Positions 10,969-28,475 of a DNA stretch of 64,000 nucleotides are shown piece after piece; positions within the stretch are counted from its first letter, which is position 1; the number at the start of each line of letters is the position of its first letter. The DNA lies in contig WGNA01000013.1 of assembly GCA_016124755.1 (NCBI GenBank), forward strand, positions 15,806 through 79,805, given 5' to 3'. The translations under genes were made by a program, and so were the position numbers. The DNA is from Bacteroidota bacterium. GTDB taxonomy: Bacteria > Bacteroidota > Bacteroidia > NS11-12g > UBA9320. The notes under the pieces were generated by a model. The model was not told the DNA's origin. It saw only the letters and a list, made by a program, of their open reading frames with translations, and searched no databases.

Positions 10969-10998
10969 TAAGTTCCCCATTGAATCTTAAAACACTAT

Positions 10999-11117: not shown

Positions 11118-11299
11118 TAAAATCATTTCGTTCCGGGTAAACCAACTGTTCACCGGCAACCTCTGCGAAATCAACTAATCCTTTTACTCATCCGATAATC
11201 TCCTGCACCCCTGCGTAAAAATGTCTTTACCTTTCCATTTCCGCTTAACTCAACAAAAAATAAGTGTTTAAACCTATCCGCTTTTTTGCAAGGAATACA

Positions 11300-11551: not shown

Positions 11552-11647
11552 AACTTCCTAAAATCCTCATCCGCTTTCGAACTTCCTCTAAATACCTCCT
11601 GTTTAACCACTCGATCCATGGTCGAAAAATCGAAGGTAACTCTGAAC

Positions 11648-12007
11648 ATAAACTTTAACGTTTCTGTGCTTAATTAGATCAGCTTATTGGATCAATTCAA
11701 TCTTTGTTTCAACAAGTACAAAATGAAATATCCTAAAACAAGAATAGGATCGCATGGGTGGACCGTCGGAAAGGCGGGATAGCCGGCGGGAATTTGTCAT
11801 TTAGTTGAAAATCGGGGAAAGTGCTTGTCACTTCTATCACTAAATTTTCAACAAATGGGAAAGGGCGCTTGACCTGCTTTCTTTACGACTTGATTTTTTG
11901 CTTACATTTTTATCAAGAAAAGAGTAAGAAGAAAAGAGATGCTACATCGAACGCCAACCGATTTACAATCCTGGTGTATCCACAAGGAGAAGCATTTAAG
12001 CTTTTAG
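11648..12007 (+). mobile_element. MITE-like nonautonomous element, copy 1 (most degraded left end)
   Basis: About 360 bp, collinear with 55535-55884 and with the reverse complement of 40726-41070. Shares the GC-rich core ggatcgc(a/g)tgggtgg.c.gtcggaaaggcgggatagcc and the right end ggtgtatc...ggagaagcatttaag. Confidence 0.7.
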
Positions 12008-12120
12008 CCAAACCAAAACTATATGTCAATTCCCAAAAACCATGAAGATCATGTGCACGTATTGACGAACTCGAATCATGATTACTTATATTCGTTAAGG
12101 AAACCAGAAACAAATTAATC

Positions 12121-13059
12121 ATGAAAAAAATATCCCTCTTATTCATTATCGTTTTTAATGGTATAATAGCATTCTCCCAGATTCATACATACCGAGGGAT
12201 TTATGATTTGGATAGTTGTGAATTTGAAAGCCATTGTAAATTGCTCGTACTTGACACTTCCTCCTCAAACATTTGGCAGATTGGAAAATCCTCGAAATTT
12301 TTTTCTGATTCATTTACTTCATATTTAAGCACTCTGGTTACCGACACATTGTATCCGTATCCGGCAAAAAATCATTCTTATTTTGATATATTAATTCCAA
12401 ATCATCGAGGTTCCAATCTCATTGTAAGTTTTCTGCATCAATTTCAAACAGATACATTAATCGATGGTGGATATATTGAAATTTCATATGATTCCGGAAA
12501 AACCTGGAACAACGTTGTTTACGAAGAAGAAGTTCATCAACCGGAGGTGTTCGCAACAGAAAATTTATATGCTGAACAGGACACTGTAGCAGGTGGAATT
12601 CCCAGATTTTCAGGAAAATCCAACGGTTGGGTTTACACCCGAATTCAATGGGTATGGTTTTTTTATTTGGATTTCAATCCTCCAGATACATTGCACATGC
12701 GATTTCATTTTATTAGTGATTCAATGCAGACAAATAAAGCCGGTTGGATGATAGATAAAATTCTAGTGTCTATCGCAGAACTTCCGTTTTCTGTTGATGA
12801 GATTAATTCAGGTAATCCATTTATAAAAATAGAACCCAACCCGGTCGAAGATGTTGCAACAATCGAATTCGAACACTATCCCACAGAAGTGTTGAGTCTG
12901 GAGATATACAATGCACTCGGACAAAAAATAAAAATTATCGAAGACATACGATCCTGCCAAATTCAGTTTTATAAAGACAATTTAACCGGTGGGATTTATT
13001 ATGTTCAACTAAAAAACATGGATCAGGTTATTGGTACAACTAAATTGGTTATTAAATAA
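12121..13059 (+). CDS. T9SS C-terminal sorting domain protein
   Basis: Signal peptide plus a C-terminal Por_Secre_tail pattern: IEPNPVEDVATIEF...LEIYNALGQKI...GIYYVQLKN...TKLVIK. Confidence 0.85.
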   Translation: MKKISLLFIIVFNGIIAFSQIHTYRGIYDLDSCEFESHCKLLVLDTSSSNIWQIGKSSKFFSDSFTSYLSTLVTDTLYPYPAKNHSYFDILIPNHRGSNLIVSFLHQFQTDTLIDGGYIEISYDSGKTWNNVVYEEEVHQPEVFATENLYAEQDTVAGGIPRFSGKSNGWVYTRIQWVWFFYLDFNPPDTLHMRFHFISDSMQTNKAGWMIDKILVSIAELPFSVDEINSGNPFIKIEPNPVEDVATIEFEHYPTEVLSLEIYNALGQKIKIIEDIRSCQIQFYKDNLTGGIYYVQLKNMDQVIGTTKLVIK

Positions 13060-13112
13060 TAACGCTATTTCAACTTAGGCACCTCTCCCGACAAAGACCA
13101 AATTCAAAACCT

Positions 13113-13643
13113 TTAATACCCCAATTCTCCCTGTATATAAAACACAATCTCCGATTTAAGTTGTCCGTCCGGGAAGCTGTTTCGCGCCTTTCCCTTAAAA
13201 ATGAGATCAACATCGGTAGTGTCGTTGTAGTAATGTTCAAAATTATCTTTAAGCACTGAGGTTGGTATTAACAAACTCGCCATCTTTCCGGTAATTCCAG
13301 GAGGCAGAGAAGCAATCAAACCATTTTCTCCCCTTACCTCGGCACTTTCCATATCTTCAAATTTAAGGTTCACAGAATCAGCAATGCTAAATGTTATCTT
13401 AGTAAGATTGATATCCGTAACCCTTATGCCGGTGGACTTATCCGATACCATATTTCGAAGAGCCTGCATCGATACAGTGTACGGAATTTCGAAGGTTTCT
13501 CCGGCTTCAGTTGCATTCACATCCAGAATAAACGTGCTGGTTCTGTCTACCCGAATAAAACCCAGTGTATTATCACAGGAATAAAAACCCATTAAAAAAA
13601 TAAAGCCCAGAATGAAGTTATTAAATTTTTTCATCTCTATCAA
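13113..13643 (-). CDS. small lipoprotein, last gene of the envelope operon
   Basis: Lipobox FLMGFYSC. Starts 4 nt after the stop of the 738-aa gene. No family recognised. Confidence 0.6.
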   Translation of the reverse strand: MIEMKKFNNFILGFIFLMGFYSCDNTLGFIRVDRTSTFILDVNATEAGETFEIPYTVSMQALRNMVSDKSTGIRVTDINLTKITFSIADSVNLKFEDMESAEVRGENGLIASLPPGITGKMASLLIPTSVLKDNFEHYYNDTTDVDLIFKGKARNSFPDGQLKSEIVFYIQGELGY

Positions 13644-13647
13644 TTGC

Positions 13648-15864
13648 TTAATTTTTAGTATTAATAATCGCTACTTTTCGAGTCTCACTCAGCAGAGATT
13701 CGGCGCCGATATCTGTCAATATCTTTACGGCATAGGAATACGTTTTACCGCTTTTAATTTCATCATCCTGAAAAGACGTATTGTCTCCGGTAAATTCAAA
13801 ACTCTTGTAACTTTCCATCACATTCGAATCCAGTGGTGATGTACGATAAACCGTAAAAAAGACCCGTTCATTAGGTTTACAAAACAGAAAAGAATAATTC
13901 CACGAGAGCATCACCTTTTCAAAATCTTCGTTGTAAACCACTTCAAAATTTTCAATTCCTTTTCTCAATCCGTTGTCGTAAGGAGTTGCCGCAATCGACA
14001 ATGAAAAATCAGAAACCAGATTACTGCTGTCAACCGCCTGAAGTGCGTATTCGTATTCCGTACTGGTTTCCACACTGCTGTCGGTAAATACCGTGTCTTT
14101 CGAACTCAGAACTGCGTATTCAACCAACGTTGAATCAAAGGGTGTTTTTCGCCACACCTTGGTATTTTTGGCATCTTCACTTGAACTCGGAATTATTTTC
14201 AACTGCAAAAAACTATCGCTCACAACAATTCTTTTTAATACAGGCGCAACCGGCGGAATTATATCCGGACGCGCAACTTTGATAATTTTTGAAGCGGCAG
14301 ACTGATTATAATGAAAGTCAAGTGCATAAACTTTGTAATAAATATTCCGGGTTAAAGTATTTAGTGTAACGGTATCAGTAAAAACACTGTCGCTGCCGGT
14401 TTTCGGAAGTGTGTCGTTTCGCTCGTATGTTTCCAGAAAGGTAGAAAACTCATGATCCGCCTGATTCGCTTTTTGAATCCGGTAGCCCATAAAATCCTTT
14501 TCCCGGTTTAATTTAATCCGCAGTGTAACCACGCCATTGCTGTCCATAGTGGCCGATGACCAAACTGGTGCAGTGGGAGGAATTGAATCGACTAATAAAA
14601 GATAAACCGGATTGGAACGAAACATATTTCCGGCTGTGTCAATCGTTTCTATTATATAATAATTCGGTTGGTCTGCACTAAAATCCACATCCCGAAACTC
14701 GGTGATATTCGGGCTTAAGAGTGCATTATTTATTTTATTACTAAAAGTTCCATGCGTTGAATTATCCCGAAGTACATTAAAACCCGCGAGATCTCTTGGT
14801 GGTCCGGTAAGTTCCCATTTTATAACTGCTACTTTTTCACCTGTTGGTTCCGGTGATGGAACAAAAATGCTGGAAAAAGGAGTTCTGTCCCGGGCCATGG
14901 CTTCTATGGTACCGACAACCACTTCATCGGCAAAAAGGGTGTGACCTACGATTCGGTATACATACGGAACATATAATTTAACCATAGTATCCGCCAAGGT
15001 TCCAATGCTTCGTTTTAATGAATCGGTTTCATCATTTATCATGATCATTTCCGAATTAAGTCTGGTATAAGACTTTCCACCATCCTGTGATCGCTCAAGA
15101 CTGTAACCAATTAAAGGTTCTTCTGCTATCAGCCAATGCAGTGTTATATTCACTTCGTTTTCAATCGCGGTAAGTTTTGCCTGTGCGTTGGTTTGATAAG
15201 GTTTTGTCTCTGTTTCAATTTCTGTCGGATCAAGTGTAAGACCTTCTTTCGGCGACTTTAATTCAATGGAATATTTGTATTTCATTCCGGGTGTAACCGT
15301 TTTATCAACCCATCTCAAACCCATCGCTTCTGATGAAACCCTGTCGTTGCAGGAAGCCAGAATCGAAAACAAAAACATCAGATCATTTTGTGCTTTTGCC
15401 ATTTGAATTGCGGAAAAATCCGATATATCTGTCGGGAGATATTTGTTTCGGTTTATTACTAATTCATACGCCATTTTAAAATACCGGTATTCTTTTGAAT
15501 TGGTATCTTTAAACTGATTCAGTGTTTTATCCCAGTCTTTTTTAGCCCATGTTTTTACGGTTGCTACTTCTTTGTATTTCGACCATTTCCCATTTTCAAG
15601 GTCACTTCTTTTAATGAGATATCCATTATCAATTCCGGCTGAAAGCAATTCGGCATCACTGGTAAGCCAACGGAGAACAATACTGTCGTTAGCTGTTCGT
15701 GGCATCAGGGCAATTTGTGCTTTTTCCTCAACCATTTCCTTTTGAGCTTTCACACTTCCGGAGAAAAATAAAAGACCGGCAGTAAACAGCATATATATTA
15801 TCCGGTTCATTTTAATTGAAATCATTTGTACGAATTGATTATAAAAAAACCCATTAACTTCCAT
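13648..15864 (-). CDS. secreted protein with about six FN3-like modules
   Basis: Six recurring modules show an 'x-L-x-W ... GY/F-x-(V/L/I)-x-R' pattern (IVLRWLT..GYLIKRS, ITLHWLI..GYSLERS, VIKWELT..GFNVLRD, LRIKLN..GYRIQKA, LQLKIIP..KVWRKT, VMLSWNY..FTVYRTS). The signal peptide MNRIIYMLFTAGLLFFSGSVKAQ starts at the Met at nt 15810, so the true start is probably 15810. Confidence 0.65.
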   Translation of the reverse strand: MEVNGFFYNQFVQMISIKMNRIIYMLFTAGLLFFSGSVKAQKEMVEEKAQIALMPRTANDSIVLRWLTSDAELLSAGIDNGYLIKRSDLENGKWSKYKEVATVKTWAKKDWDKTLNQFKDTNSKEYRYFKMAYELVINRNKYLPTDISDFSAIQMAKAQNDLMFLFSILASCNDRVSSEAMGLRWVDKTVTPGMKYKYSIELKSPKEGLTLDPTEIETETKPYQTNAQAKLTAIENEVNITLHWLIAEEPLIGYSLERSQDGGKSYTRLNSEMIMINDETDSLKRSIGTLADTMVKLYVPYVYRIVGHTLFADEVVVGTIEAMARDRTPFSSIFVPSPEPTGEKVAVIKWELTGPPRDLAGFNVLRDNSTHGTFSNKINNALLSPNITEFRDVDFSADQPNYYIIETIDTAGNMFRSNPVYLLLVDSIPPTAPVWSSATMDSNGVVTLRIKLNREKDFMGYRIQKANQADHEFSTFLETYERNDTLPKTGSDSVFTDTVTLNTLTRNIYYKVYALDFHYNQSAASKIIKVARPDIIPPVAPVLKRIVVSDSFLQLKIIPSSSEDAKNTKVWRKTPFDSTLVEYAVLSSKDTVFTDSSVETSTEYEYALQAVDSSNLVSDFSLSIAATPYDNGLRKGIENFEVVYNEDFEKVMLSWNYSFLFCKPNERVFFTVYRTSPLDSNVMESYKSFEFTGDNTSFQDDEIKSGKTYSYAVKILTDIGAESLLSETRKVAIINTKN

Positions 15865-18800
15865 GTGTAGTGAATCCTACTTTTTTAGTAGTCGTCTTCA
15901 TCACCTGTCCGTTTTTATTTTTAACAGGTTCCCAATTGCCCTGCGCATTTTTTACCATTAGTGTTGCGGTAACCCAAGTGTTGTAATAATGGCTGTAAAT
16001 AAATCGCTTGTTTCGGGCGTATCCATAATAAAAGAAAGTTCCCAGAGAATATCCGTCACCTTCTTCTTTCATCACTCCGTTTTTATATCGCATATCCCAG
16101 GCTGAACTCCATTCGCCTTTCGGACTACCTGGATAATCGGCATCTGCGCCCGGATTAGCGAGAATTTCACCATCCACAAACCACTGCAGATCAACCGTGT
16201 AAATTTTCTGAACCTTCACACCGTTTTCCATCACATCCATTTTGGTTTCGTAGGTATATGTCCCGTCTCCAACGTACCGGCAACCAAAAAGTGAAACAAC
16301 CTGTACCGGTGTCATACGGTCGGTATAACCGGAATTGTGCATGGCAAATTCACCAATCTCCACCATGTCATTCATGTCCATATCCAACAATTCGTCTGCA
16401 TCGATGTCTTTGCCAGTAGTTCTTCTCGGCCTGCATACGGTTCCGTAGGTAAAGGGAACCGAAGCCCGTATATTAATAGTGATGAAAATTACCTTGAGTC
16501 TGAAGTTTCCGGCCACACGACCTTTAGCCCAGATCGGATCGGGTGCACCTGCCTGCATCATACCGGCTCCACCGAGTGATGCGCTAACGAGACCTTTGAA
16601 TCCAACACTCGCAGTCGCCCAGGCCGCAATTCCACCACGCGCATACCAATAATTAAAATCATCGGTAACGCAGCCATTATCTGGTCCGAATTGTTCCATA
16701 CATAAATTGAGTTCCGCACCCACACTAAAACTTCCGCTGAACGGACCAACACTCACACCTCCGGATTTATTAAACCCGATACCGAAATCGAATCCCTTTC
16801 CACCTTTTGCATTTTCATCAACCGGTTCAGGAACAGACCGAAAAGATGGATCAACGCTTTGGAGACCGGCTAATGTCACGGGTTGAAAACTACTGTTAGT
16901 TATCAGATTATTTCCGGCCCGGAAATACGACCAACTGTTAATTCCATAGTATTTTATTCTATTGGGTACGGTAGGTGTTCCAACGTGCAGATACCAGAGT
17001 GGTTCTCCCCCGCCTTTATTCTTTTCAACATGCAATGCTAATGTAGCCTGTTCGGTAGTTTGGATCATGACGATTCCCACCGTAGGATATTTAATGTCGA
17101 CCTTTACATTGAGATCAAAAATATCCGTGGTAAAATCATAATTGGCCACCAGATTTCCTTTGATCGGCGCATGCGTACGGTCATCCAATCCCGCACCGAT
17201 AAAGCCCGACCCACTTAATTTAAGGTAATTGATTCCTCCGCTGCTGTTGAATTCAGCCCCGAAAGCCACATCGCCGTTGAAGGTTTTATCCGACTTAGTA
17301 TTCACAAAAATTCCGGTAATGTTAAAGCCAAAAGAGACAGATGGATTCGGAGAGAATGATGCACCCGATGAACCGGAAGTAACATCCGATTTCGCATTGT
17401 TCACTTTGCTCACATCCATTGTCGGCATGTTTCCGGCCTTCATGTGATACCACGCTGCAACACCGGCGCCCTTAAAGCCCAGAGGCCCCACCATAGGTAC
17501 CGCATTTTTCAATATCATCTGAGCATCGGCATACCAATATTTAAAATTTCCTGTAGTTTGCTTTATTGAACCAAAGCGAACTTCTGCTTTTAATTCGCCG
17601 GCTTTTTTAAATACCGCCTTTGCCTTTCCCCAAAAACCGTCACCGTAAACTGCATCACCGTTATAGTACACTAACGTTCCCGACAAATCCACCGCTGCCA
17701 GTTTTGCGGAAATGGAAATCGAATCAATACCGGCACTAAGAAAGGCCGGTTTGTAAATATTATTTTCTTTTCTAACTCCGCCTTTTAATAATAAGCGCGT
17801 CGATCCGCTGATGTTATCTCCCACATTAACGGCAATCTTCATCTGCAATTGAGCAACGGCTTCGAAACCATAAATTTCAGGTGCTTCTGTTAAACTCATT
17901 TCGCTGATTGTAAAGCCAAATCCGGCTACTTTCTTTTGCGGACTTGCGAAGGCGAATTTGGCATCTTTGTTAAATGCCAGCTTTCCTTTGGTTTTCGAAT
18001 TATCGTAATTAAAACCGAGCTTTTCGAAGCGCATGCCCATGCTCAGTTCCAGTTTATCTACTTTTTTCTCTAACGACAGCTCTCCGTTTAGTTCCACTTT
18101 TGCGGTAACGGTTCCTTTGTTTTTTCGTTTTTTGGATTTAACATAAACCAACTCAATTACAGAAGTTTCTTCCAGATCGAGTACGGCACCGCCAATGAGA
18201 TCCGTGTTTAAATTTCCATCCGGAGAAATGGTGATCTGTGTGGTTGCGCCTTTCTTTTTATTGGCTGCGGTCCAACTGGCTTCATAATTAATGGCGTTTT
18301 TATCCTCACTCGAACTTTTGGTAATCGGTAAAACCAATTGTCCGGTTACCGCTGCTTTTTTTATCGATTTGCTCACAATGTCGATTTCCACGCACTCGAT
18401 ACTCGCCTGAAAATCGCCCACATTTCCGGAGGATAAATTAATTAACGGGTTGTTTTTATCCCCGACTTTCACATTGCCGGTTACACCCATTTTGGTAATA
18501 ATAAAATTGTCGAGACTTAAGGCTATTCCCGTGGTGTCGGTTCCTTTATTATAAAATTTAGGCAACACAAACTGAGCTCCTTTTAAATAAAATCCTTTGA
18601 AAGTATTCCCTTTATCACCTACATAACCCGAAGGGAATTTCATACCATCAACATTTCGGGAATCGGAATTATCAAACACCAATTCGTTAACCGATAATTC
18701 CACTCCGTCGAGCCCGTTTATTTCACACGGATTAATACTTAAAGATAAAATCCAGTCTTTTAAATTCGTGATATCCGCAACTGCCCTACCCACGACTTTT

Positions 18801-21580
18801 TCATCCGGAAGCGGGTCTCCTTCTTCCTTTATCGGTGTAAGCCAGTCACGTGGAAATGCAACATCCACCGTTGCCATCAGGTTTTCAAAACCTTTACAGC
18901 CCCATTTAATATAGGTTCCCGAATTATAATCCGTGCCGGCAATAAAGGTTACGCCGTATGAATTGTTGTCGGGATTTACGATGTTAAAATTTTCTAATAA
19001 TACCAGACTTGCTCCGCCACTTGAAGGCGTTGCCGAAGAAAATTCAATATTGGTCGCGGCAAACGAAATATCGTCGCTGGTTCCGTCTCCACGGTCAAAC
19101 GGCAGAGTTGCCATACATACCAGTGTATTTTTAGAAGGTGTAAACTTCATTTCACTGATCATAATCGTATAGCCAAATAAATTATTAATTCCCAACGGAA
19201 GGGTGGCCATAATTCCGCTTTGAACATTTTCTATATTATCATCCAGATCCTGATCAGCGATTAGTTTTTTGCTTTTATTTTCATTCAGCTTTTGTTTTAC
19301 TTTTTTAGCATTCTCTTTAGTGAGTTTACCTCCGCCCGCACCTTTTAAAAATCTCGGAACGTCGCTGATATTTTCGTCCCGAACCGCATGCACTTCTCCC
19401 GATGTAACGGTGAGTGCAGTATTTATCTGCAAACCTTCAAATTCAACCTGCAATGCCGATTTTAGCCAGGCGACTACAATTGAACCTTTGCCTTTGTATG
19501 TCGAACCGGTTTGATTTATTTCCGTAACCAGCATGCTGAAATTGCCAATTTTTACGAATTTGTTTTTCAAATCCGCTCCGGTTTGCATTCCCTTATTGGA
19601 AATTACTTTTTTATTTCCATCACAATCGGTTAGCTCGAAATTGCTGCTCGTGCTGGTAGTCGCGTCTGTATAAAATATTCGATTTAATGATCCTTTTCTA
19701 ATGGTAGTTAGCGGCATAACCTGCACATTCCAGCTCATGGCTCGAGGTGCTGGCATATCATCTCTTGTCAAGGTTAATTCCGTGATATTTCTGACCGTTG
19801 TATCAAAGTACACTTCAATGGATCTGCCATTGTTAATTTTCAGACTTAACTTGTAGAATACTCCATCAGCTCCGATATCATTTAAATTACTGTTCCATTT
19901 AAAATGAACCCCGGAATTAAAATCAATAGCTGCGATCTTTGCTCCATTCGATGGGTAAACTAAGGTCGGGACTTCCGGTTTAGTTGCCAGCACCGTAAAT
20001 TTTCCACGTTCTGAATAGCCTTGCTGAGTTCCGGTTTTACTGCCAATCGGATAAGATGGAATGGTATTTTTATCCATCGCAATTATTTCCCACTCATACG
20101 ATTTGTTAGCGACTAATACATCTTTTAACTTTATGCTGATGTGATTGTCCTGATCAACATATCCGCTCTTAACCAATTGTTGACTCGTTGCGTCGTACAA
20201 CTTGACCCAATATCTCACCCCGTTTCTGAACGGAGAAACAACATTCCATTTAAAATCAATTCCTGCTACCGCTTCGGTCCATTGTACATTAGTATTGTTG
20301 GTGGGATAAACCAATGTTGGTTCTTTATATTTAACAATAACAGGCTTAGTCGTAAAAATAAAATGATTGGAATATTGTCCATTTGGAAACCGCACACGCC
20401 ACAAGTATTTTCGGTTATAATTCAAGGTCATCGACAGTGGGAGCCTGAAAATACCGGTAGAAGACGAGTATGTTTTTCCAGATCCAATTCTGGTGTATGC
20501 AGTATAAGCTCTGAAATCACTGGAGAATGGCATTGACATCGGGATTTCATAAATTTCAACTCTGGACAGACCACTCGTTTTAGTCCAGGATAAATTAACA
20601 TATCCTTGTCGCGGATCAACATACGCTTCATTTGCAGGCGCGATCAATTGCAATTGATACTGAGAGGTTGAAGAAACATTTCGAGTTGTATTCAACGTTG
20701 CGATAACGGTAAAGGATCTTAGTTCGGAATACCCTAAATTCTCTCCCTCATTTTTCCCGATGGGCTGATTTGTTGTTGCATCAAATGCCCGTACTCTCCA
20801 GATGTAGCGATATGTATACTGACTTCCTAACTGCTTTCTTTGATTAATTTTCTGGGCCGCATCAGTCCAGACATAGGAGTTACTGTACGAAAAAGATCGC
20901 ACGATCGGAATACCTGCAAGTGCCTGTAAATCGCTGACCCCATTGTTTACTTCATACATTTCGAATTGATATCTCACCGGTTTGGGATACACCGGAGCAA
21001 CCGCCTTCCATTGAAAAACCTTTCCGATTGCGGCCGTTTCTGAAAATCCAGAGTTGTCTGTCGGAAGTAGTAATGTTGGCTCCTGATATTCGGTAAGTAA
21101 AAAAGAAGCACAGGCTTTTGAACTAAGTTCTATCCCATTCGGATTATGCACGGTTACACAAATGTTGTAACTGCCCGGATATAATTTCCCGGATGCCAGA
21201 TTTACAGCAGAAAGATTTACATCAAATGAATTATTATCCCATAATTGATTAATGTAAAAAATATTAACTCCGGGATTTAAATCTACTATTTTGCTTTTCG
21301 TCCAGCTTGCCGTTACTGCCCTTGTCCCCGATTTATCAACCACCGCTGAAACCCGAATTCGGGAAGAGGTTTGTAAACTGTTTATAATCATCACTCTCAA
21401 CACACTCGGATCCTTAAGCCATTCCAGCGCAAGAGGCGGCGGACTGGTTGCCACGAAAACCTGCACCGATGTAATTTGCTGCGCACTTGTTCTTCCAATT
21501 ATTAATGAAAAAATCAGCAACAACAAAAACCGGATCGAACCACCGGATAAATATTTTATTTTATTATTTGGACGATTCAT
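15854..21580 (-). CDS. 1908-aa secreted giant protein of unknown family
   Basis: Uninterrupted 5.7-kb ORF. Sec-type signal IRFLLLLIFSLIIGRTSAQ, four N-terminal repeat modules, then about 1300 aa of Gly/Asn/Ser-rich sequence of beta-type composition. No T9SS CTD at the C-terminus (ends ...KKVGFTTHGS). Confidence 0.85.
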   Translation of the reverse strand: MNRPNNKIKYLSGGSIRFLLLLIFSLIIGRTSAQQITSVQVFVATSPPPLALEWLKDPSVLRVMIINSLQTSSRIRVSAVVDKSGTRAVTASWTKSKIVDLNPGVNIFYINQLWDNNSFDVNLSAVNLASGKLYPGSYNICVTVHNPNGIELSSKACASFLLTEYQEPTLLLPTDNSGFSETAAIGKVFQWKAVAPVYPKPVRYQFEMYEVNNGVSDLQALAGIPIVRSFSYSNSYVWTDAAQKINQRKQLGSQYTYRYIWRVRAFDATTNQPIGKNEGENLGYSELRSFTVIATLNTTRNVSSTSQYQLQLIAPANEAYVDPRQGYVNLSWTKTSGLSRVEIYEIPMSMPFSSDFRAYTAYTRIGSGKTYSSSTGIFRLPLSMTLNYNRKYLWRVRFPNGQYSNHFIFTTKPVIVKYKEPTLVYPTNNTNVQWTEAVAGIDFKWNVVSPFRNGVRYWVKLYDATSQQLVKSGYVDQDNHISIKLKDVLVANKSYEWEIIAMDKNTIPSYPIGSKTGTQQGYSERGKFTVLATKPEVPTLVYPSNGAKIAAIDFNSGVHFKWNSNLNDIGADGVFYKLSLKINNGRSIEVYFDTTVRNITELTLTRDDMPAPRAMSWNVQVMPLTTIRKGSLNRIFYTDATTSTSSNFELTDCDGNKKVISNKGMQTGADLKNKFVKIGNFSMLVTEINQTGSTYKGKGSIVVAWLKSALQVEFEGLQINTALTVTSGEVHAVRDENISDVPRFLKGAGGGKLTKENAKKVKQKLNENKSKKLIADQDLDDNIENVQSGIMATLPLGINNLFGYTIMISEMKFTPSKNTLVCMATLPFDRGDGTSDDISFAATNIEFSSATPSSGGASLVLLENFNIVNPDNNSYGVTFIAGTDYNSGTYIKWGCKGFENLMATVDVAFPRDWLTPIKEEGDPLPDEKVVGRAVADITNLKDWILSLSINPCEINGLDGVELSVNELVFDNSDSRNVDGMKFPSGYVGDKGNTFKGFYLKGAQFVLPKFYNKGTDTTGIALSLDNFIITKMGVTGNVKVGDKNNPLINLSSGNVGDFQASIECVEIDIVSKSIKKAAVTGQLVLPITKSSSEDKNAINYEASWTAANKKKGATTQITISPDGNLNTDLIGGAVLDLEETSVIELVYVKSKKRKNKGTVTAKVELNGELSLEKKVDKLELSMGMRFEKLGFNYDNSKTKGKLAFNKDAKFAFASPQKKVAGFGFTISEMSLTEAPEIYGFEAVAQLQMKIAVNVGDNISGSTRLLLKGGVRKENNIYKPAFLSAGIDSISISAKLAAVDLSGTLVYYNGDAVYGDGFWGKAKAVFKKAGELKAEVRFGSIKQTTGNFKYWYADAQMILKNAVPMVGPLGFKGAGVAAWYHMKAGNMPTMDVSKVNNAKSDVTSGSSGASFSPNPSVSFGFNITGIFVNTKSDKTFNGDVAFGAEFNSSGGINYLKLSGSGFIGAGLDDRTHAPIKGNLVANYDFTTDIFDLNVKVDIKYPTVGIVMIQTTEQATLALHVEKNKGGGEPLWYLHVGTPTVPNRIKYYGINSWSYFRAGNNLITNSSFQPVTLAGLQSVDPSFRSVPEPVDENAKGGKGFDFGIGFNKSGGVSVGPFSGSFSVGAELNLCMEQFGPDNGCVTDDFNYWYARGGIAAWATASVGFKGLVSASLGGAGMMQAGAPDPIWAKGRVAGNFRLKVIFITINIRASVPFTYGTVCRPRRTTGKDIDADELLDMDMNDMVEIGEFAMHNSGYTDRMTPVQVVSLFGCRYVGDGTYTYETKMDVMENGVKVQKIYTVDLQWFVDGEILANPGADADYPGSPKGEWSSAWDMRYKNGVMKEEGDGYSLGTFFYYGYARNKRFIYSHYYNTWVTATLMVKNAQGNWEPVKNKNGQVMKTTTKKVGFTTHGS

Positions 21581-21588
21581 GTTCTCTT

Positions 21589-23370
21589 TTAAAATGAATA
21601 TGAGGCAAATAGTCTGATGGAATTTTCGGTATAATTCACCCCTGGTTTGCGGGTACCGTATTTATAAAAGTTGTATGTTCCGTTGGCGCCCAGATTCAGT
21701 TTCTTTTTAAAGATGTAAGAAAGCATTACTGAGATGTTCGAATTTTTATCAGCACTGTATTCATCCAAAGCGGTATTCATAAAATTTCCCTGCACGGTAG
21801 TGTTGAGATTTTTCTCTTTTCCAAAAGGATATCCCACTGATGCAGAAACCGTATTTACTTTAAGTTGTCCCGCATAAATCTTATTTTCCATATAAGCGTC
21901 TGTTAGATTTATGGTGAGTGGCGTTTTGGCAAATGCGATTGAATAACCGCCCACGTAAACACGTGTATTGTTGTCTGCAAAGGCTCCGCTTACTACGTTA
22001 TAATCCTTGAATTTACTGAGATTAAAAGATCCGATAAAAGTGTGAGATGTCTTTTCCCTTCGAATAATATAGCTGCTGTTTACACTAATATTGTTGTTAA
22101 TATTTTGCAATCGGAAGGTGTCGTTCACCACTGTGTTCCGCATTCCGAAATTTGAAAAGGTGCCACCTAATGTCCAGTTTTTAGTGAGAATAAAACTCGT
22201 ATTAACCGAATACAAATCCTGATAGGTGGTTGATGTTTTATTTTCCAAAAGGTTGTCGATTCTTCGACCGGCCGAAACATTAATACCTACTCGTTCCTTA
22301 AACAGTTTCACATACGGCTCTACAAGAATTTCCAGCCTGTCGGTTTGCAGAAACGGAAAATTAAGTGTGTGATAGTCGGAGGTGTACAGCTTACCGGAAA
22401 TTTTAGCTCCCCATTTTGTTGCCGCATAACCAATGGCTGCTGTTGAAGCCAATCCGTAGCGGCTTGTGAGTCTTGGTTTAAAAGTTTTGGTGAGCCATCT
22501 GGGAATATTGAGTTCAAAGGAATCAGACTCTAATGCATCGTCTTCCAAATCCACTGATAGTGCAGAAATCGCCATTTCACCCTGAACAAAAAATTTAGAA
22601 CCAATACACAGTTTACCATCGAGACTTGTTACCGCATTTTCCATGGCATGAACACCGGTGGTGGTAACATTTGCGGAGTTTTTATCGTCCATGTGTTTCA
22701 GGGCAATCACGTAGAAATGTGATCTTTCCTCCATGCCGTATCCGATTTTAAAACCCGCAGATGTTCGTTTGTAGGATCCGGGAAGATTTGCATTAGAATC
22801 GGTGCTCACTCCCGGTTGGGAAATACCGTAAAAGGCTGCCAAACGAAATTTCTTTGGCTTCCACAAAAAACCACCTCCGAAAAGCGGCAGACTGCCACAC
22901 GTAAGTTCGGAGTACTTCGGAACTTGCGTTCCAAGATTTGCCGTAAGATTTTTATAGGTCGGATTGAATGACAGGTTGTTGTAATTGTTCACCAGATCCT
23001 TAAGTCGGAAGTTAGCCGGAATAGGTGTACTGTACTGCGAAACCTTCGATTGAACCATGTACGAAATGTTAAATGGCATTGAAAATTTTCCGACGCTGAG
23101 TTGTGCATTTGCAAACAACATGGTTTGAGAAGGTGAACGGTATGGAGTGTAAAATGTATCGTTGCTTGAATAATTAAAGAAATTCTGGCTTGCCCCCAAC
23201 GAGCCGGATAATTTCAGTTTAGGGGTTTTGGATTTTTCATCTTTGGAATCGCTTTGAGCCAGAAGTGTTACCGGGATCAACAGTAAAAAAAGCAAGTACG
23301 TCAGCGTTTTTACGACAGCGTTTTTCATGAAAATTATCCCCTGACTACGACCAATTGGTTTCTGTTTCAT
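21589..23370 (-). CDS. outer-membrane beta-barrel-like protein, first gene of the envelope operon
   Basis: Signal peptide TYLLFLLLIPVTLLAQ (start possibly the Met at 23328). Alternating hydrophobic pattern throughout, and a C-terminal ...IRLFASYSF with terminal Phe as in OMPs. Ends 8 nt before the giant gene's start. Confidence 0.65.
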   Translation of the reverse strand: MKQKPIGRSQGIIFMKNAVVKTLTYLLFLLLIPVTLLAQSDSKDEKSKTPKLKLSGSLGASQNFFNYSSNDTFYTPYRSPSQTMLFANAQLSVGKFSMPFNISYMVQSKVSQYSTPIPANFRLKDLVNNYNNLSFNPTYKNLTANLGTQVPKYSELTCGSLPLFGGGFLWKPKKFRLAAFYGISQPGVSTDSNANLPGSYKRTSAGFKIGYGMEERSHFYVIALKHMDDKNSANVTTTGVHAMENAVTSLDGKLCIGSKFFVQGEMAISALSVDLEDDALESDSFELNIPRWLTKTFKPRLTSRYGLASTAAIGYAATKWGAKISGKLYTSDYHTLNFPFLQTDRLEILVEPYVKLFKERVGINVSAGRRIDNLLENKTSTTYQDLYSVNTSFILTKNWTLGGTFSNFGMRNTVVNDTFRLQNINNNISVNSSYIIRREKTSHTFIGSFNLSKFKDYNVVSGAFADNNTRVYVGGYSIAFAKTPLTINLTDAYMENKIYAGQLKVNTVSASVGYPFGKEKNLNTTVQGNFMNTALDEYSADKNSNISVMLSYIFKKKLNLGANGTYNFYKYGTRKPGVNYTENSIRLFASYSF

Positions 23371-23530
23371 CCCTCTTCAGCTCAAAATCGTTTTGCCAAA
23401 GATGATTTAAACCATGTTTCCTGTATGTGATGTTGGGACAAATGGAAACTCACTTGGGACGAGTGGATTTAAGCGAACAGAATTGCCGTAACACTACCCG
23501 CGAAATGGGAAAAACTTGTTTGAAAAAAGG

Positions 23531-24304
23531 TCAGTTTTGCGCTGAAGAATCGGGCAACTTCAGCTTTGCTAAAAGCTCATCGCGGTTTGAGCGTGAAACC
23601 GGAATTTGTGCATCTTCAACTTGTACTTCATGTGAATCCACCTTATTCACATGATTGAGATTAACGACATACGATCGGTGAACCTGCAGAAAGTTCCCGT
23701 CGGAGACGAGGTTCAGAAATCCTTTTAATGTGTAGCGAATTACTTCCCGCTGATCAGATAAATGCAGTTCTAAGTAATTTTTAAATGCCTGAATGTAGCG
23801 GATATCAGAAAAGTAAATTTTCTTATAAACCGAATTATTTTTAATAAAGATGGATTGCGAATCGTGCAGCAATCCTACATCCGGATCATTGTGTTCATCC
23901 GAATCTGTTGGAGTTGGTTGATTTTGTTTTGAATAATTCTTTAAGGCAATTTCAATCGCCGGATACAAATCCACCTTTTTAAAAGGTTTCACCAAATAAG
24001 CAGAAGGCAACGTTTCAGCAGCGTTCCGGATCGTATTCGGGTCGTCGTACGCTGTTATGTAAATGATTGGTATGTTGTACTTTTTCCTGATTTCTCCACC
24101 CAGCCAAACGCCATCCTTTTCTCCTCCGAGATTTATATCCAACAGGGCGATATCGGGTGAAGTTTCCCTGAGAACCTCGAGAGCCTCCTCTGCATTCATG
24201 GCATCACCCACCACGCGATAGCCCATTTCATCCATATAGGTTCGCAACAAATCAAGTGTTATAAATTCATCGTCAACTATAAAAACCCTGATATCCCGTT
24301 TCAT
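23531..24304 (-). CDS. LytTR-family response regulator
   Basis: REC domain (VFIVDDE..., DIALLDINL, VKPF) followed by LytTR DNA-binding motifs (IRYIQAFKNYLELHL, FLQVHRSYVVNLNHV). Confidence 0.9.
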   Translation of the reverse strand: MKRDIRVFIVDDEFITLDLLRTYMDEMGYRVVGDAMNAEEALEVLRETSPDIALLDINLGGEKDGVWLGGEIRKKYNIPIIYITAYDDPNTIRNAAETLPSAYLVKPFKKVDLYPAIEIALKNYSKQNQPTPTDSDEHNDPDVGLLHDSQSIFIKNNSVYKKIYFSDIRYIQAFKNYLELHLSDQREVIRYTLKGFLNLVSDGNFLQVHRSYVVNLNHVNKVDSHEVQVEDAQIPVSRSNRDELLAKLKLPDSSAQN

Positions 24305-24379
24305 CAGCCACTACACTACTTACACCTGCAAAATAAGGCCTTCCTGCGTACAATGAAAGATGTAAATCAAACAATTTTA

Positions 24380-26326
24380 TTAACCGGAAACCACTTCAAA
24401 AGCGCTCCCGGCAGAAAGATGTATCTCATTGAGTTTTGCTCCCAATTGACGGGAAAGTCCCCGGATCAGCGACATACCCAAACCACCCTGATCCTTCGAT
24501 GAAGATGTATTGTTTATACCGGTTCCATTGTCTTCCACCCTTAAATAAATACCACTATTCGTTTTTTTATAGATCACCTTAATAATCCCATCATTCCGAT
24601 TATTAAAGGCGTGTTTAAAACAATTCGTAATGAGTTCATTAATAATTAATCCCAGCGGAATCGCCTGTTCAATGCTGATGTTTGTTTTATCCACTAAGGT
24701 TATTATTTCAATATTTCTATCATCCGATTCATATGATTTCAAAATATTGTCTACCAATAATTGAATATAACTATCTATTTGAATAGCGTTGATGTTTCCA
24801 CCCTGATGAAGACTCTGATGAACCAAAGCCATCGAAAACACTCTACTTTGGCCCTCCCTCAGTAATTGCCGGCTATGCTCATCTGTTGTTTTCGACGCCT
24901 GTTTTTCCAACAAACCGGAAATGATTTGCAGATTATTCTTTATTCGGTGATGCAGTTCCTTTAACAAAATATCTTTCTCGGATAATGATTGCTCCAACAG
25001 GGATTTTTGAGTGGAAATAATCCGGTTATCGTTCCTGATTCTGTAATATATAATTAATGATCCTGTTAAAACAAATATTAAGATCAGTACAACCACTATA
25101 TTTAGTTGTCTTGCAGACCTGCCTTCCAACTCAGCCTGCACCATTTCTTTTTTGTGTTGCTCCACCTGCACCTGCATTTCCGCCTGCCAGATCTGACGTT
25201 TGTCGTTCCGTCGATTAAGACTGTCAATCAATTTATCCGCCAGTTTGTCGTAATGAAAAGCATTAGCAAAATCACCTTTTATTTCAAACAGATTTACCAT
25301 ATTTTTATAAAGGGAAAGCGGTTTAAAATAGTTGCTCTGCATGTTGGAACCCAGTTCGTTCATCAAAAATTCTGATCGTTTGATATGACTCCAGGCTTCA
25401 TCGTATTCCTTATATCGGATGTTCATTTTGGTTAAGGTTTGTAATGCATCAAACTCCGCATTCACCTTAATCTGATCCTGAAAATTGTCCGTGACTTTCA
25501 ATCGCATTTGCCCGGTATCCAGATATTTTTTGCTCAACGGATACTTCCCCTGATCATAGAGATATTCTGCCATATTTAATGCAGAAAGCGCACACCAATA
25601 ATTGTGAACCCAAACTTCACCGTCTGTGTAAGATCTGAGCGTGTCGCACAATCTGTAAATTTTCTGCGCATAATTAAAAGCCATTTCCGGCTGATTCATA
25701 TCCTGATAAATATTCTCCAGCAGATTTAGCATTAATATATAAAACTGAGAACTTTTTCGGGCTAATGACTCAGCCTTTAATAAACATTCCAATGCACGCC
25801 GACGATCACCCAGTTCATAAAAATTTCTCCCGATATCGTATAAAGTGCTTTCAATCCAATAAAATTCGAAGGGCTTTATTCCCATAGATTTAATATCTTC
25901 ATAACAACTCAGGTAGTAATAATAGACCTGTTGTTCAGAGATTAAATTTCGTGCATAACCCTTGATCGCTTTGCGGAATTTAACAACAACCTGTTCTGCT
26001 TTCAGATTATTTTTATTCGCTATCTCCTCAAGCCGCTCGTCACATTTTTCGACCTCATCCTCAGTAAAGTCGTATATTCCTGTGAGATTACTCACTTGAA
26101 AATTCCAATAAAACTCTGCCTTAATATCTTTTTTGCTTTTGATGATTTCCAAATACTGATAGTATTCTTCCTTCGTGACCTTTTTACTTCTTATATTATA
26201 AAGGTCAAATTCCTGCATACGTTCCCGGTTTGTTTTAAGGCTTGCAAAATGTTCTGTATTCGGAGAACCGGAGACAGTTGAGGTAACCCACCCTAAAATC
26301 ATCAAAAAGGCAATGCGTATTTTCAA
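24380..26326 (-). CDS. sensor histidine kinase (HisKA_2 type) with TPR-like extracytoplasmic domain
   Basis: Signal peptide, about 400 aa of helical TPR-like repeats, one TM segment (IVVVLILIFVLTGSLIIYY), an H-box LHHRIKNNLQIISGLL, and HATPase_c motifs (NELITNCFKHAF, DNGTG, GLGMSLI). Confidence 0.9.
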   Translation of the reverse strand: MKIRIAFLMILGWVTSTVSGSPNTEHFASLKTNRERMQEFDLYNIRSKKVTKEEYYQYLEIIKSKKDIKAEFYWNFQVSNLTGIYDFTEDEVEKCDERLEEIANKNNLKAEQVVVKFRKAIKGYARNLISEQQVYYYYLSCYEDIKSMGIKPFEFYWIESTLYDIGRNFYELGDRRRALECLLKAESLARKSSQFYILMLNLLENIYQDMNQPEMAFNYAQKIYRLCDTLRSYTDGEVWVHNYWCALSALNMAEYLYDQGKYPLSKKYLDTGQMRLKVTDNFQDQIKVNAEFDALQTLTKMNIRYKEYDEAWSHIKRSEFLMNELGSNMQSNYFKPLSLYKNMVNLFEIKGDFANAFHYDKLADKLIDSLNRRNDKRQIWQAEMQVQVEQHKKEMVQAELEGRSARQLNIVVVLILIFVLTGSLIIYYRIRNDNRIISTQKSLLEQSLSEKDILLKELHHRIKNNLQIISGLLEKQASKTTDEHSRQLLREGQSRVFSMALVHQSLHQGGNINAIQIDSYIQLLVDNILKSYESDDRNIEIITLVDKTNISIEQAIPLGLIINELITNCFKHAFNNRNDGIIKVIYKKTNSGIYLRVEDNGTGINNTSSSKDQGGLGMSLIRGLSRQLGAKLNEIHLSAGSAFEVVSG

Positions 26327-26495
26327 CTGTTTAAAGTATGGAATGATTAATAACCCGATGCTGCATTTCGTTCATTAAAAGTACGTTTTTGCGAATGCGA
26401 TTGGCACGAGTCAAAAGTAGCGAAAAGCAGTTTAAGCACTAATTGAGAAAATGTTACGAACGAATCCATTTGTGCCAATTGGATGCTCATGTTAC

Positions 26496-26612
26496 ACCGA
26501 AGCCGATTAATTTTTAGGCACCTTTCAATTCCGAAGGCTTGGAGTACCCGACTGTGAGTCTGATATTGTTAGGTTGAGGGCGAGTTATACCCTTGAGAAT
26601 TCTTTTGAGCCA
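26496..26612. repeat. dispersed ~118-bp repeat, copy 2
   Basis: Aligns by eye with 10999-11117. Lies in the 530-bp divergent intergenic region between the kinase and the amidase. Confidence 0.6.
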
Positions 26613-26855
26613 GGAATCTATCCACGATGGGTAGAAGTGTTGAGATGAAATACGCAAAAAACAGAACAGGTTCCATCAACTTTTTTCTTTTCGAAATCGA
26701 CGAACAACCAATGCATGATTCTTTTATCTTCGTTAGTAAAGTCACACGTTAAACTTTGACCTGATGGCAGTAAATAATTTCTGCATTCAGGTCACCTTCA
26801 CCGCCTTTCAAATTTTAATCGAACTGAATATTTTTTTGAACTAAATTTTATTAGA

Positions 26856-28475
26856 ATGAAACCAAAAACAAAAAAAACGCTGAAGTGGATCGGTATAGGA
26901 TTCGGTTCACTTTTATTAATTGTAATTGCTCTCGGAATTTATGTTTATTCTCTGATTCCCAAATTCGAGGGGAAGTGCCCGCCTCTTCAATCTTATTTAT
27001 TTGAAAAGCCTAAATCTACAATCCCCGTTGAATGTAAGTTTATTTATAAGTCCGCATCGGAACTCGCTGAACTAATTAGAACCCGACAGGCAACCTCTTA
27101 TGAAATTGTGAAAGAGCATATCGATTACATAAAAAATAACAATTACAAGTACAACGCAATTGTTTGGCTTCGGGAGAATGACGCTCTGGAAGAGGCCAAA
27201 AAAGCGGATGCTGTTGTTGCACATGGAGACAGTTTGCCAATACTGCACGGGGTTCCGGTAACCGTTAAAGAAATGTTTTGGGTAAAAGGATTAACCAATA
27301 ATCTGAATGCAAAAATGACCGGAGGATTTATCGCTCCCGAGGACGGGGAATTGGTGAAGCAACTCAAAAAGTGCGGTGCCATTATTCTTGGAACTTCCAA
27401 TGTTCCTTTTATGTTGGGAGATTTTCAAACCTACGGAGAAATTTACCCTACATGCAACAATCCGTACAACATTTCCAAAACACCTGGAGGTAGTTCCGGA
27501 GGAAGCGCCGCTGCCTTAGCTGCAGGATTTACACCACTGGAATTGGGAAGCGATTTAGGCGGAAGTATTTCTGTGCCATCCGCATTTTGTGGCATTTACG
27601 GTTTAAAACCTACGTATGGAACCTTGAATATTACTCAGGGCTCCGGACCGGATACCATCACTAAATACTCCAGATTTGCCATGGCGGTTCCGGGACCGAT
27701 GGCACGTTCCGCGAAAGATTTGGAATTGATGTGGTTGGCTCTAAAAGAAACATCAATAGACCTACGATTTCAAAAAAGTGTAGTCTGGAAACCGTCTTCC
27801 GACAAATTACTAAGCCAATATAAGATCAGTTATACCGACGACTGGCAAAAGGCTTCTGTTGGAACAGATGTTAAAGAAAAAATGCAATGGCTTATTAATG
27901 TGCTAAAAGAACAAGGCGCCACCTCTAAAAGAGAAGTTCCTCAATTAAACGACGCAATGCAACATTCGTTTTTGAAATCCTATGCACTCATGTTCGCCGA
28001 AAATCAACCCTGGATTATGCGAAAATTAATAAGTATGGATTTCAGCAAATTTGATGATGGCTTGGTAAACATGTCTGCCTTTTACGATGCGATGAACCAT
28101 CCGGGTGATGATAATTGGAAGCTATGGCAAAATGAAAATAATAAACTCATTGAATCGTGGGAAGACTATTTCAAGACTGTCGATTTTTTAATTTGTCCGG
28201 TAACGTACGGAGCGGCATTCGACAAATGTGAATTAGGCACACCGATCAAAACCAAAGACGGAACAATCCCTTACACCTTCTATTCATTCCCATATTCCAT
28301 TGTATTTGCGGCAACCGGACATCCGGCGGTAACCATTCCGCTGGGTCTCAACAGTGAAGGAATGCCAATTGGGGTTCAAATTGTCGGCAAATATTATTCA
28401 GAACCTGAACTATTGCATTTCACGAAACTGCTCGAACAATTGTTACCGGGATTTCAAAAACCAAAAAGCAGTTAG
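26856..28475 (+). CDS. amidase-signature enzyme with N-terminal membrane anchor
   Basis: Amidase signature GGSSGGSAAALAAGFTPLELGSDLGGSISVPSAFCGIYGLKPTYG. N-terminal TM segment IGIGFGSLLLIVIALGIYVY. Confidence 0.9.
   Translation: MKPKTKKTLKWIGIGFGSLLLIVIALGIYVYSLIPKFEGKCPPLQSYLFEKPKSTIPVECKFIYKSASELAELIRTRQATSYEIVKEHIDYIKNNNYKYNAIVWLRENDALEEAKKADAVVAHGDSLPILHGVPVTVKEMFWVKGLTNNLNAKMTGGFIAPEDGELVKQLKKCGAIILGTSNVPFMLGDFQTYGEIYPTCNNPYNISKTPGGSSGGSAAALAAGFTPLELGSDLGGSISVPSAFCGIYGLKPTYGTLNITQGSGPDTITKYSRFAMAVPGPMARSAKDLELMWLALKETSIDLRFQKSVVWKPSSDKLLSQYKISYTDDWQKASVGTDVKEKMQWLINVLKEQGATSKREVPQLNDAMQHSFLKSYALMFAENQPWIMRKLISMDFSKFDDGLVNMSAFYDAMNHPGDDNWKLWQNENNKLIESWEDYFKTVDFLICPVTYGAAFDKCELGTPIKTKDGTIPYTFYSFPYSIVFAATGHPAVTIPLGLNSEGMPIGVQIVGKYYSEPELLHFTKLLEQLLPGFQKPKSS

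Follow-up and report, generated by a model that had tools for sequence, protein, structure and literature searches.

An undescribed barrel, giant and FN3-protein gene set of Bacteroidota, preceded by a two-component pair and a LytTR-type direct repeat

What does a bacterium build from four tightly packed genes whose products are all exported and fall in no described family? This question is raised by one locus in a 64-kb stretch of contig WGNA01000013.1 from a member of the Bacteroidota (assembly GCA_016124755.1; hereafter the window). The genes encode an outer-membrane β-barrel, a 1908-aa secreted protein (the giant), a protein with tandem modules of the fibronectin type III (FN3) kind and a small lipoprotein, and a HisKA_2 kinase and a LytTR response regulator are encoded beside them. 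An initial annotation had proposed here an undescribed system for surface assembly, adhesion or export under dedicated signal control. The undescribed, conserved gene set was borne out by the present analysis, while the role in surface assembly, export or adhesion is one that we infer. All six open reading frames (ORFs) of the region lie on the minus strand:

24380-26326, minus strand, HisKA_2 kinase
23531-24304, minus strand, LytTR response regulator
21589-23370, minus strand, barrel (593 aa)
15854-21580, minus strand, giant (1908 aa)
13648-15864, minus strand, FN3 protein ORF (738 aa); likely gene 13648..15810, 720 aa from the signal-peptide Met
13113-13643, minus strand, lipoprotein ORF (176 aa), reaching a TTG at 13643; likely gene 13113..13634, about 173 aa

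The four structural genes were found with the order, lengths and gaps that had been annotated. Barrel and giant are separated by 8 nt, and the giant overlaps the 738-aa ORF by 11 nt, which turns into a 43-nt gap if the FN3 protein starts at the Met at 15810, the start preferred by the orthologue alignment. The 738-aa gene is followed by the lipoprotein gene after 4 nt, or after 13 nt with the conserved ATG at 13634, which the orthologue alignment again prefers. The spacing between regulator and barrel is 160 nt. N-terminal Sec signals are readable in the translations of the operon proteins, and the lipobox of the lipoprotein (...FYS-C) retains its Cys in 8/8 orthologues, in which Met4-Lys5 are conserved as well. 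Sec or lipoprotein signals are indeed visible on all four proteins.

The four structural proteins fall in no described family. Searched as single sequences, the barrel, giant, FN3 protein and lipoprotein gave zero matches in Pfam-A at E ≤ 0.1. At the same threshold, NCBIfam returned nothing close to its curated cut-offs, with few matches for the FN3 protein and the lipoprotein, all far under cut-off. PADLOC and PHROGs had no matches for the four proteins, PDB sequence searches with the single proteins found nothing, and PDB profile searches found nothing for the giant or the lipoprotein. A defence-system or phage origin was rejected on the empty PADLOC, PHROGs, BFVD Foldseek and plasmid searches, the last of which gave no match for the locus. 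As had been annotated, none of the four carries a type IX secretion system (T9SS) C-terminal domain: Por_Secre_tail, TIGR04183, CHU_C and SprA_N are absent from all four in both Pfam and NCBIfam. As a positive control, the same libraries do find the T9SS C-terminal domain in the adjoining 312-aa protein.

The complete six-gene set (kinase, regulator, barrel, giant, FN3 protein and lipoprotein) was found in nine distinct loci of Bacteroidia/Bacteroidota metagenome-assembled genomes (MAGs). In these close loci the flanking genes vary, and the kinase/regulator pair lies upstream, downstream or divergent. Identity to the window proteins is about 50% for the barrel, 40-52% for the giant, 45-51% for the FN3 protein and 23-33% for the lipoprotein; the overall span quoted for the six-gene loci is 27-52%. 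Kinase orthologues adjoin the operon in L003, L005, L007 and L012-L015, and the regulator is kept beside the kinase in all close loci with sufficient contig. Since the arrangement is conserved in nine distinct loci of other genomes, it goes beyond chance, and the prediction that gene order would be conserved together with the HisKA_2/LytTR pair proved correct. Two loci bear titles from elsewhere, 'uncultured Bifidobacterium sp.' for L009 (CAZGVO010000007.1) and 'Vulcanococcus limneticus' for L013 (CALRIT020000006.1). These labels are probably wrong because the contigs carry T9SS C-terminal-domain proteins and the operon, both of Bacteroidota type; the 'Bacillales' label of L019 is doubtful.

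Is the set controlled by its neighbouring two-component pair? In the kinase, Pfam recognised HisKA_2 (1.6e-25) and HATPase_c_2 (6.8e-10). The layout comprises an N-terminal signal or transmembrane segment, an extracytoplasmic helical (TPR-like) domain of ~380 aa, a transmembrane segment at aa ~409-430, and then HisKA_2 and HATPase_c. The regulator contains Response_reg (2.9e-21) and LytTR (4.3e-17). Pfam thus upholds the annotated kinase and regulator, while for the annotated TPR-like sensor the matches (TPR_12) stay below the Pfam cut-off. Classical sites of LytTR regulators, such as those of AgrA, ComE and PlnC, consist of two direct repeats of ~9 bp with a 12-bp spacer, and the -7 promoter consensus of Bacteroidota is TAnnTTTG. 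Two elements of these types lie between regulator and barrel:

23434..23461, minus strand, direct repeat CGTCCCAAG / TGTCCCAAC with 21-bp period and N12 spacer, 64-91 nt upstream of the barrel ATG
23397..23404, minus strand, CATCTTTG, a near match to the -7 element, 27 nt downstream of the second repeat

The repeat follows the consensus YGTCCC(W)3, present twice with a 21-bp period, and is unique in the 64-kb window (0.12 expected by chance). In 0.98 Mb of sequence (window and loci, both strands), the pattern [GT]TCCC-N16-[GT]TCCC occurs 17 times. Directly upstream of the barrel gene and on the coding strand lie 14 of these 17 occurrences, which cover 9/9 distinct orthologous loci, and at these 9 loci the repeat is kept in position, spacing and orientation. 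A similar -7-like box is found 25-27 nt past the second repeat in L003, L005 and L007. The repeat at 23434-23461 is therefore a putative binding site of the LytTR regulator. Because this conserved LytTR-type repeat precedes every barrel orthologue, the regulator can be tied to the operon, and the dedicated signal control suggested in the initial annotation is backed. It is very likely that the operon is activated directly by this neighbouring regulator, through predicted binding to the repeat, and we hold it highly probable that the genes are a functional unit under LytTR control.

With AgrCA, ComDE and PlnBCD the set shares a receiver-LytTR regulator and, close upstream of a core promoter, paired ~9-bp direct repeats spaced by 12 bp. 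In contrast to these systems, the kinase is of the HisKA_2 type with a large periplasmic helical sensor, and not an HPK10 polytopic peptide receptor. Moreover, the window set includes no peptide pheromone or exporter gene, its host belongs to the Bacteroidota, and YGTCCCWWW differs from the known boxes. A literature search on LytTR systems in Bacteroidota yielded nothing relevant. In Ignavibacterium locus L016 (6103-9119), a different pair stands ahead of the cluster: its kinase is of the HAMP-HisKA type, and its regulator (451 aa) contains a receiver domain. Since this pair is not homologous, dedicated signal control may recur with unrelated regulators.

The first structural gene had been annotated as an outer-membrane barrel with a terminal YSF, and its AlphaFold2 (AF2) model agrees. 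Built from an alignment of 22 homologues, the model has a predicted local distance difference test (pLDDT) score of 82.7 and a predicted template modelling (pTM) score of 0.69. It shows an unbroken β-meander of ~24-26 strands that runs from residue 53 to the terminal YSF. The strands begin right after the Sec signal, and the model contains no plug, POTRA or periplasmic domain. Pfam likewise finds no POTRA, in line with the annotated lack of POTRA and of motifs of two-partner secretion (TPS). The 22 homologues are all unnamed, none has a Pfam domain, and conservation peaks at aa 94-190. In Foldseek searches against the PDB, MtrB (6r2q_B) ranked first (E 6e-9, TMq 0.54, 11% identity), followed by barrels of TonB-dependent transporters, FimD/PapC ushers and SlpA. 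The matches to FimD/PapC (TMq 0.27-0.44) cover the barrel part only. As the matches spread over large-barrel types at 7-13% identity, the protein is best described as a generic very large barrel, and a TM-score of 0.54 to MtrB therefore reflects generic large-barrel likeness only. By its model, the barrel matches in size those that surround a partner protein or let one through, and appears as a member of none of those families.

The giant runs from a signal peptide through an FN3-like array, a unit R and a unit T into a tail:

19661..21580, minus strand, giant aa 1-640, signal peptide and N-terminal FN3-like modules with recurring Y-x-W-R-V-x-A ... G-x-S-E
18011..19585, minus strand, giant unit R (aa ~666-1190), a repeatable all-β unit of ~500 aa, nearly all β strands in the AF2 model
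16421..18010, minus strand, giant unit T (aa ~1191-1720), the terminal all-β unit, with long Gly-rich hairpins
15854..16420, minus strand, giant tail (aa ~1721-1908), poorly conserved and of low pLDDT, with no T9SS C-terminal domain

The core that is conserved in the family reaches from aa ~690 to ~1720 (~1050 aa), past which family coverage falls. In an exhaustive HMMER search with aa 640-1839 as the query, 1255 representative clusters were recovered at E ≤ 1e-3 and 531 at E ≤ 1e-30, comprising proteins of 1400-5500 aa. A word-indexed homologue search misses most of these giants (2-11 found versus 1255 by HMMER). The sole name in ten clusters that were looked up was 'hypothetical protein', the sources being Ignavibacteriales, Kapabacteria and Bacteroidota MAGs, and none of 28 members scanned carries a Pfam domain above cut-off. 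Judged from these searches, the giant core belongs to a very large unnamed family and hence is no orphan. Across the family, the part N-terminal to the core can be as short as 1 aa or as long as 2393 aa. Unit R occurs in tandem in some relatives, with 6 copies at a ~600-aa period in P0070 (5511 aa) and 6-7 in P0142 (4237 aa), whereas family members carry one copy of unit T (also delimited as aa ~1250-1700), placed after the R units. P0070 and P0142 imply very long modular proteins made from an undescribed R repeat of ~500 aa. In the window giant itself, self-BLAST found no internal repeats at the sequence level.

The AF2 model of giant aa 640-1839, from a 25-sequence alignment, consists almost wholly of long antiparallel hairpins (pLDDT 76, pTM 0.43). 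Unit T is its best-confidence region, with ~26 long strands, and has two conserved cysteines (Cys1637 and Cys1716). Foldseek gave local matches only for the giant core, with LptD on top (E 1.5e-6, TM 0.11-0.20) and SlpA, porins and ApoB100 among the others. There was no global fold match, no TamB structure among the matches, and nothing among the viral models of BFVD. Because the TM-scores are 0.1-0.2, the likeness to LptD is a local β-meander only. With empty profile searches and Foldseek matches that are generic (barrel) or of such low TM-score (giant), barrel and giant stay outside known families, as first annotated. A common origin of giant core and barrel was also considered and ruled out, since hhalign shows no relation between them. 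The giant carries a short cleavable Sec signal and neither a membrane anchor nor a lipoprotein signal, and its sequence contains no HExxH, no CXXCH and no other catalytic motif.

The first ~300 aa of the giant and a ~60-aa segment also occur in otherwise different Flavobacterium proteins named 'fibronectin type III domain-containing'. These proteins (P0027-P0036, 1250-2600 aa; P0031 is L008 10001-15127) share only these two parts with the giant. Beyond the shared N-terminus, P0031 and its relatives show a HELGH zinc-protease-like motif and a sub-threshold match to a TANFOR domain. By sequence, proteins of the P0031 type look like a second family that reuses the N-terminal module of the giant.

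As a single sequence, the FN3 protein is below Pfam detection. FN3 arrays are built of tandem β-sandwich modules of ~90-100 aa, and a profile of 13 orthologues matches such arrays in titin and RPTP-delta (E 8e-12 to 1e-5); with RPTP-sigma, DCC and neogenin included, the range is E 8e-12 to 1e-3. This profile-level agreement indicates a genuine tandem-FN3 protein and confirms the annotated FN3-like character. The lipoprotein has no relative in Pfam, NCBIfam or PDB, and its profile search of the PDB yields no LptE. Among the loci compared, it is confined to the close clade.

Which part of the set is stable over longer distances? A looser set of giant and FN3 protein, in part with the barrel, was found in Ignavibacteria, Chitinophaga, Saprospiraceae and Flavobacterium, and thus in the phyla Bacteroidota and Ignavibacteriota. 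Giant and FN3 protein are adjacent in 8/8 informative distant cases, and the barrel is present in 6/10 distant loci listed (L002, L008, L016, L017, L021 and L024). Gene orders differ, as in these examples:

Ignavibacteria L016 and L017: giant, FN3 protein, barrel
Lewinellaceae L024: barrel, giant, then an FN3/giant fusion
Chitinophaga agrisoli L021: giant, FN3 protein, SprB-like protein, barrel

A LytTR system is missing from the distant loci, and no lipoprotein was detected in them. Barrel candidates in L020 and L022 were rejected as not homologous. L008 (Flavobacterium) was rejected as an orthologous locus: its 688-aa protein is no barrel, its 202-aa protein no lipoprotein, and P0031 shares only the N-terminus of the giant. 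Taken from these comparisons, giant plus FN3 protein appear to be the evolutionarily stable core, to which the barrel is often added; lipoprotein and two-component system appear specific to the close clade. T9SS cargo with SprB repeats and Por_Secre_tail lies inside or beside several distant sets (L021 16324-21720, L018 13239-19544 and L008 4733-9997), and in L022 (14538-16217) a cargo protein with the C-terminal domain only is encoded between giant and FN3 protein. The presence of SprB-repeat T9SS cargo within distant sets suggests a functional tie to T9SS adhesins in some lineages.

Comparison with known systems places the set outside each of them. As in two-partner secretion, a barrel gene lies just upstream of the gene for a very large, Sec-exported and β-rich partner, and the proposed logic is again that of one dedicated barrel per giant substrate. 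TpsB proteins, however, are 16-strand Omp85 barrels with two POTRA domains, and TpsA proteins combine an N-terminal TPS domain with a β-helix. The window barrel has ~24-26 strands and no POTRA, and the conserved module of the giant is C-terminal while its N-terminus is FN3-like; ShlB, Bac_surface_Ag, POTRA_2 and Haemagg_act are absent in Pfam and NCBIfam at E ≤ 0.1. TAM/AsmA proteins are marked by an N-terminal inner-membrane anchor and an Omp85 partner; on the giant, a short and cleavable signal peptide is present instead of such an anchor, and Pfam detects no TamB/DUF490, AsmA or YhdP in the window giant and 24 further family members. The SprA/Sov translocon is defined by an SprA_N domain and a 36-strand barrel; the four proteins have neither SprA_N nor a type A/B C-terminal sorting domain. 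The best structural match, the 26-strand MtrB of Shewanella MtrAB, is likewise a large plug-less barrel, with a partner protein filling its lumen, but there is no MtrB_PioB match in Pfam and the giant lacks CXXCH haem sites, none being possible from its Cys positions.

LptD-LptE also pairs a ~26-strand barrel with a small lipoprotein, and LptD is the top, weak Foldseek match of the giant core. However, the domains of LptD (an N-terminal OstA jellyroll and the LptD barrel) and of LptE are absent, the lipoprotein is missing in the distant versions, and the window-type operon is accessory and patchy, whereas LptD-LptE is essential and universal. For chaperone-usher systems, which combine an usher barrel that has a plug and N/C domains with a PapD-like chaperone and pilins, Pfam gave no Usher, PapD or Fimbrial matches. 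The SprB/SprF and SprC/SprD proteins of T9SS-dependent Flavobacterium gliding come from the same phylum and likewise unite a giant surface protein, a barrel and accessories in one operon. SprB and SprC carry T9SS C-terminal domains and SprF and SprD are of PorP_SprF type, but the window genes carry neither, and no SprB repeats occur in the operon genes of the window. Paralogy with SprC/SprD was suspected because distant loci contain SprB-repeat T9SS cargo. By published domain annotation, SprC is a CHU_C protein, SprD combines PorP_SprF and SPOR, and SprF is a PorP_SprF protein (PMC10288586, Table S2). Giant and FN3 protein were rejected, by domain content, as paralogues of SprD and SprC, since CHU_C, PorP_SprF and SPOR are absent. 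As in RTX adhesins of the LapA/LapE type and inverse autotransporters, a conserved anchor module is combined with copy-variable tandem β units and a variable distal array. Inverse autotransporters have the barrel fused to the passenger, whereas here it is encoded in a separate gene, and by Pfam the cluster shares no type I secretion genes, RTX repeats or retention module with LapA/LapE. Since the features of TPS, TAM/AsmA, SprA/T9SS, SprC/D/F, LptDE, MtrAB and chaperone-usher systems were not found, the set is placed outside the known kinds. By analogy, we rate it as resembling most a split anchor-passenger or two-partner arrangement while being a member of neither, and any function proposed is wholly a matter of inference.

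What the set might do can be sketched as follows. The HisKA_2 kinase, with its helical periplasmic domain as the sensor of an extracytoplasmic cue, would phosphorylate the LytTR regulator, which would bind the 21-bp-spaced repeat and activate a single transcript of barrel, giant, FN3 protein and lipoprotein. All four proteins would pass the inner membrane by Sec, and BAM would insert the plug-less barrel into the outer membrane, where the giant may find in it a dedicated anchor and/or conduit. The T unit could dock at or in the barrel, with the R unit and the N-terminal FN3-like array forming an extended fibre off the cell, the FN3-array protein acting as stalk or adaptor and the lipoprotein as plug or assembly factor. 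The reasons for this fibre model are the plug-less, partner-sized barrel, the conserved C-terminal core with a variable distal part, the FN3 companion and the lack of T9SS and lipoprotein signals on the giant. A giant that lacks a T9SS C-terminal domain needs another route to the surface, and the nearest solved folds of the barrel, MtrB and the FimD/PapC ushers, enclose or pass partner proteins, which supports the conduit view. The 6-7-fold multiplication of unit R in relatives resembles, by analogy, fibre-forming adhesins. We therefore advance, tentatively, an undescribed, signal-controlled modular surface fibre that is anchored or exported by the barrel, a reading that we find quite possible. 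That barrel, giant and FN3 protein constitute a new T9SS-independent outer-membrane export or anchoring pathway of the Bacteroidota-Ignavibacteriota, switched by LytTR in this clade, seems somewhat unlikely. Such a pathway would amount to a new type of secretion or surface display, centred on a plug-less barrel of ~24-26 strands through which a modular fibre is threaded and held.

Several points weigh against the surface fibre. The pTM of the giant model is low. Two Saprospiraceae loci have giant and FN3 protein with no barrel detected within the fetched flanks, and therefore the barrel may not be obligatory. The T unit might insert in the membrane alone, as its weak barrel-like Foldseek matches suggest, and the complex could be periplasmic. 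In addition, the close carriers of the six-gene set are uncultured MAGs throughout, and the single transcript is predicted from gene spacing only.

Other explanations were weighed against the same evidence. Giant, FN3 protein and barrel could be a scaffold for T9SS-exported adhesins of the SprB type or for gliding, the window clade being a derivative with its cargo encoded elsewhere. The SprB-repeat cargo in or beside the sets at L021, L018 and L008, the other cargo at L022, and the T9SS cargo genes of the host genome, one of which adjoins the operon, fit this explanation. We nevertheless think it unlikely, since none of the nine close loci has an SprB-like or T9SS-domain gene inside the operon, the Ignavibacteria loci consist of giant, FN3 protein and barrel only, and by domains the window proteins are not SprC/SprD and, by Pfam, the barrel is not PorP/SprF. 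Alternatively, the giant may be an envelope-internal β-sheet scaffold or lipid conduit, comparable to the LptD/Lpt bridge, AsmA/TamB or ApoB, that works with barrel and lipoprotein. Full-length LptD as the best Foldseek match of the giant core (with ApoB100 also matched) and the LptD/LptE-like combination of a ~26-strand barrel with a lipoprotein of ~175 aa point in this direction. Against them stand TM-scores that reflect a local β-meander, the lack of any LptD, OstA, LptE, AsmA, TamB or YhdP signal in Pfam, the short cleavable signal peptide in place of an inner-membrane anchor, and the distant loci that have no lipoprotein. Furthermore, multiplied R units and variable FN3 arrays suit an extracellular fibre better than a periplasmic bridge of fixed length, which makes an envelope-internal giant distinctly unlikely.

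As a toxin or pore-former, whether secreted or contact-dependent, that leaves via the barrel and inserts its Gly-rich T-unit hairpins in a target membrane, the giant is a very improbable candidate. Unit T does contain long amphipathic hairpins rich in Gly, Ala and Ser, the Flavobacterium proteins that share the N-terminal ~300 aa carry the HELGH zinc-protease motif, and LytTR induction is common for bacteriocin and toxin loci. However, neither HExxH nor any other catalytic motif occurs in the giant itself, an immunity-like gene is lacking, searches of PADLOC and PHROGs came back empty, and FN3 arrays such as the conserved partner are typical of structural surface proteins. Finally, unrelated secreted proteins standing together as chance neighbours, with no functional unit at all, are scarcely credible: order and tight spacing repeat in nine loci with different flanks, the association holds over two phyla despite rearranged order, and among gene-set positions the conserved repeat precedes the first gene only.

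The operon is bordered by unrelated genes, a convergent gene for the 312-aa T9SS cargo (12121-13059, plus strand) and a divergent amidase gene (26856-28475). Small Por_Secre_tail T9SS cargo genes directly flank the operon in the window (12121-13059, plus strand) and in L003 (5709-6908 and 17-649), which may be a coincidence in cargo-rich genomes. Rfam gave no cis-regulatory RNA in window positions 10500-27500, and no terminator of the simple-model type was found 3' of the lipoprotein gene. Within the ORF-free region 10969-12120, a 101-nt unit is present in 2.3 head-to-tail copies of 88-100% identity (11310-11544, plus strand). Its core, CTTTCGTCCGGGGAGGGGTGG, has no further copy in the window; the repeat has no Rfam match, and its fold does not exceed shuffles in stability (z = -0.24). 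At 4884-6779 (minus strand), a 631-aa protein joins a 7TMR-DISM receptor to an adenylate/guanylate cyclase domain. With this fusion, another membrane sensor is encoded close to the operon, to which it has no evident link.

Surface display in Bacteroidota is thought to proceed mainly via T9SS and lipoprotein export. The gene set described here, in which a dedicated large barrel is paired with a modular giant devoid of T9SS and lipoprotein signals, is widespread, with more than 1000 giant-core clusters in at least two phyla. The conserved LytTR-type operator offers a handle for inducing the system, which would rank among the few defined LytTR regulons beyond Firmicutes and Proteobacteria. If barrel, giant and FN3 protein do form an export or anchoring machine, units R and T would be new folds, many 'hypothetical' giant proteins of environmental Bacteroidota would be explained, and a new route would be added to the diderm secretion repertoire.

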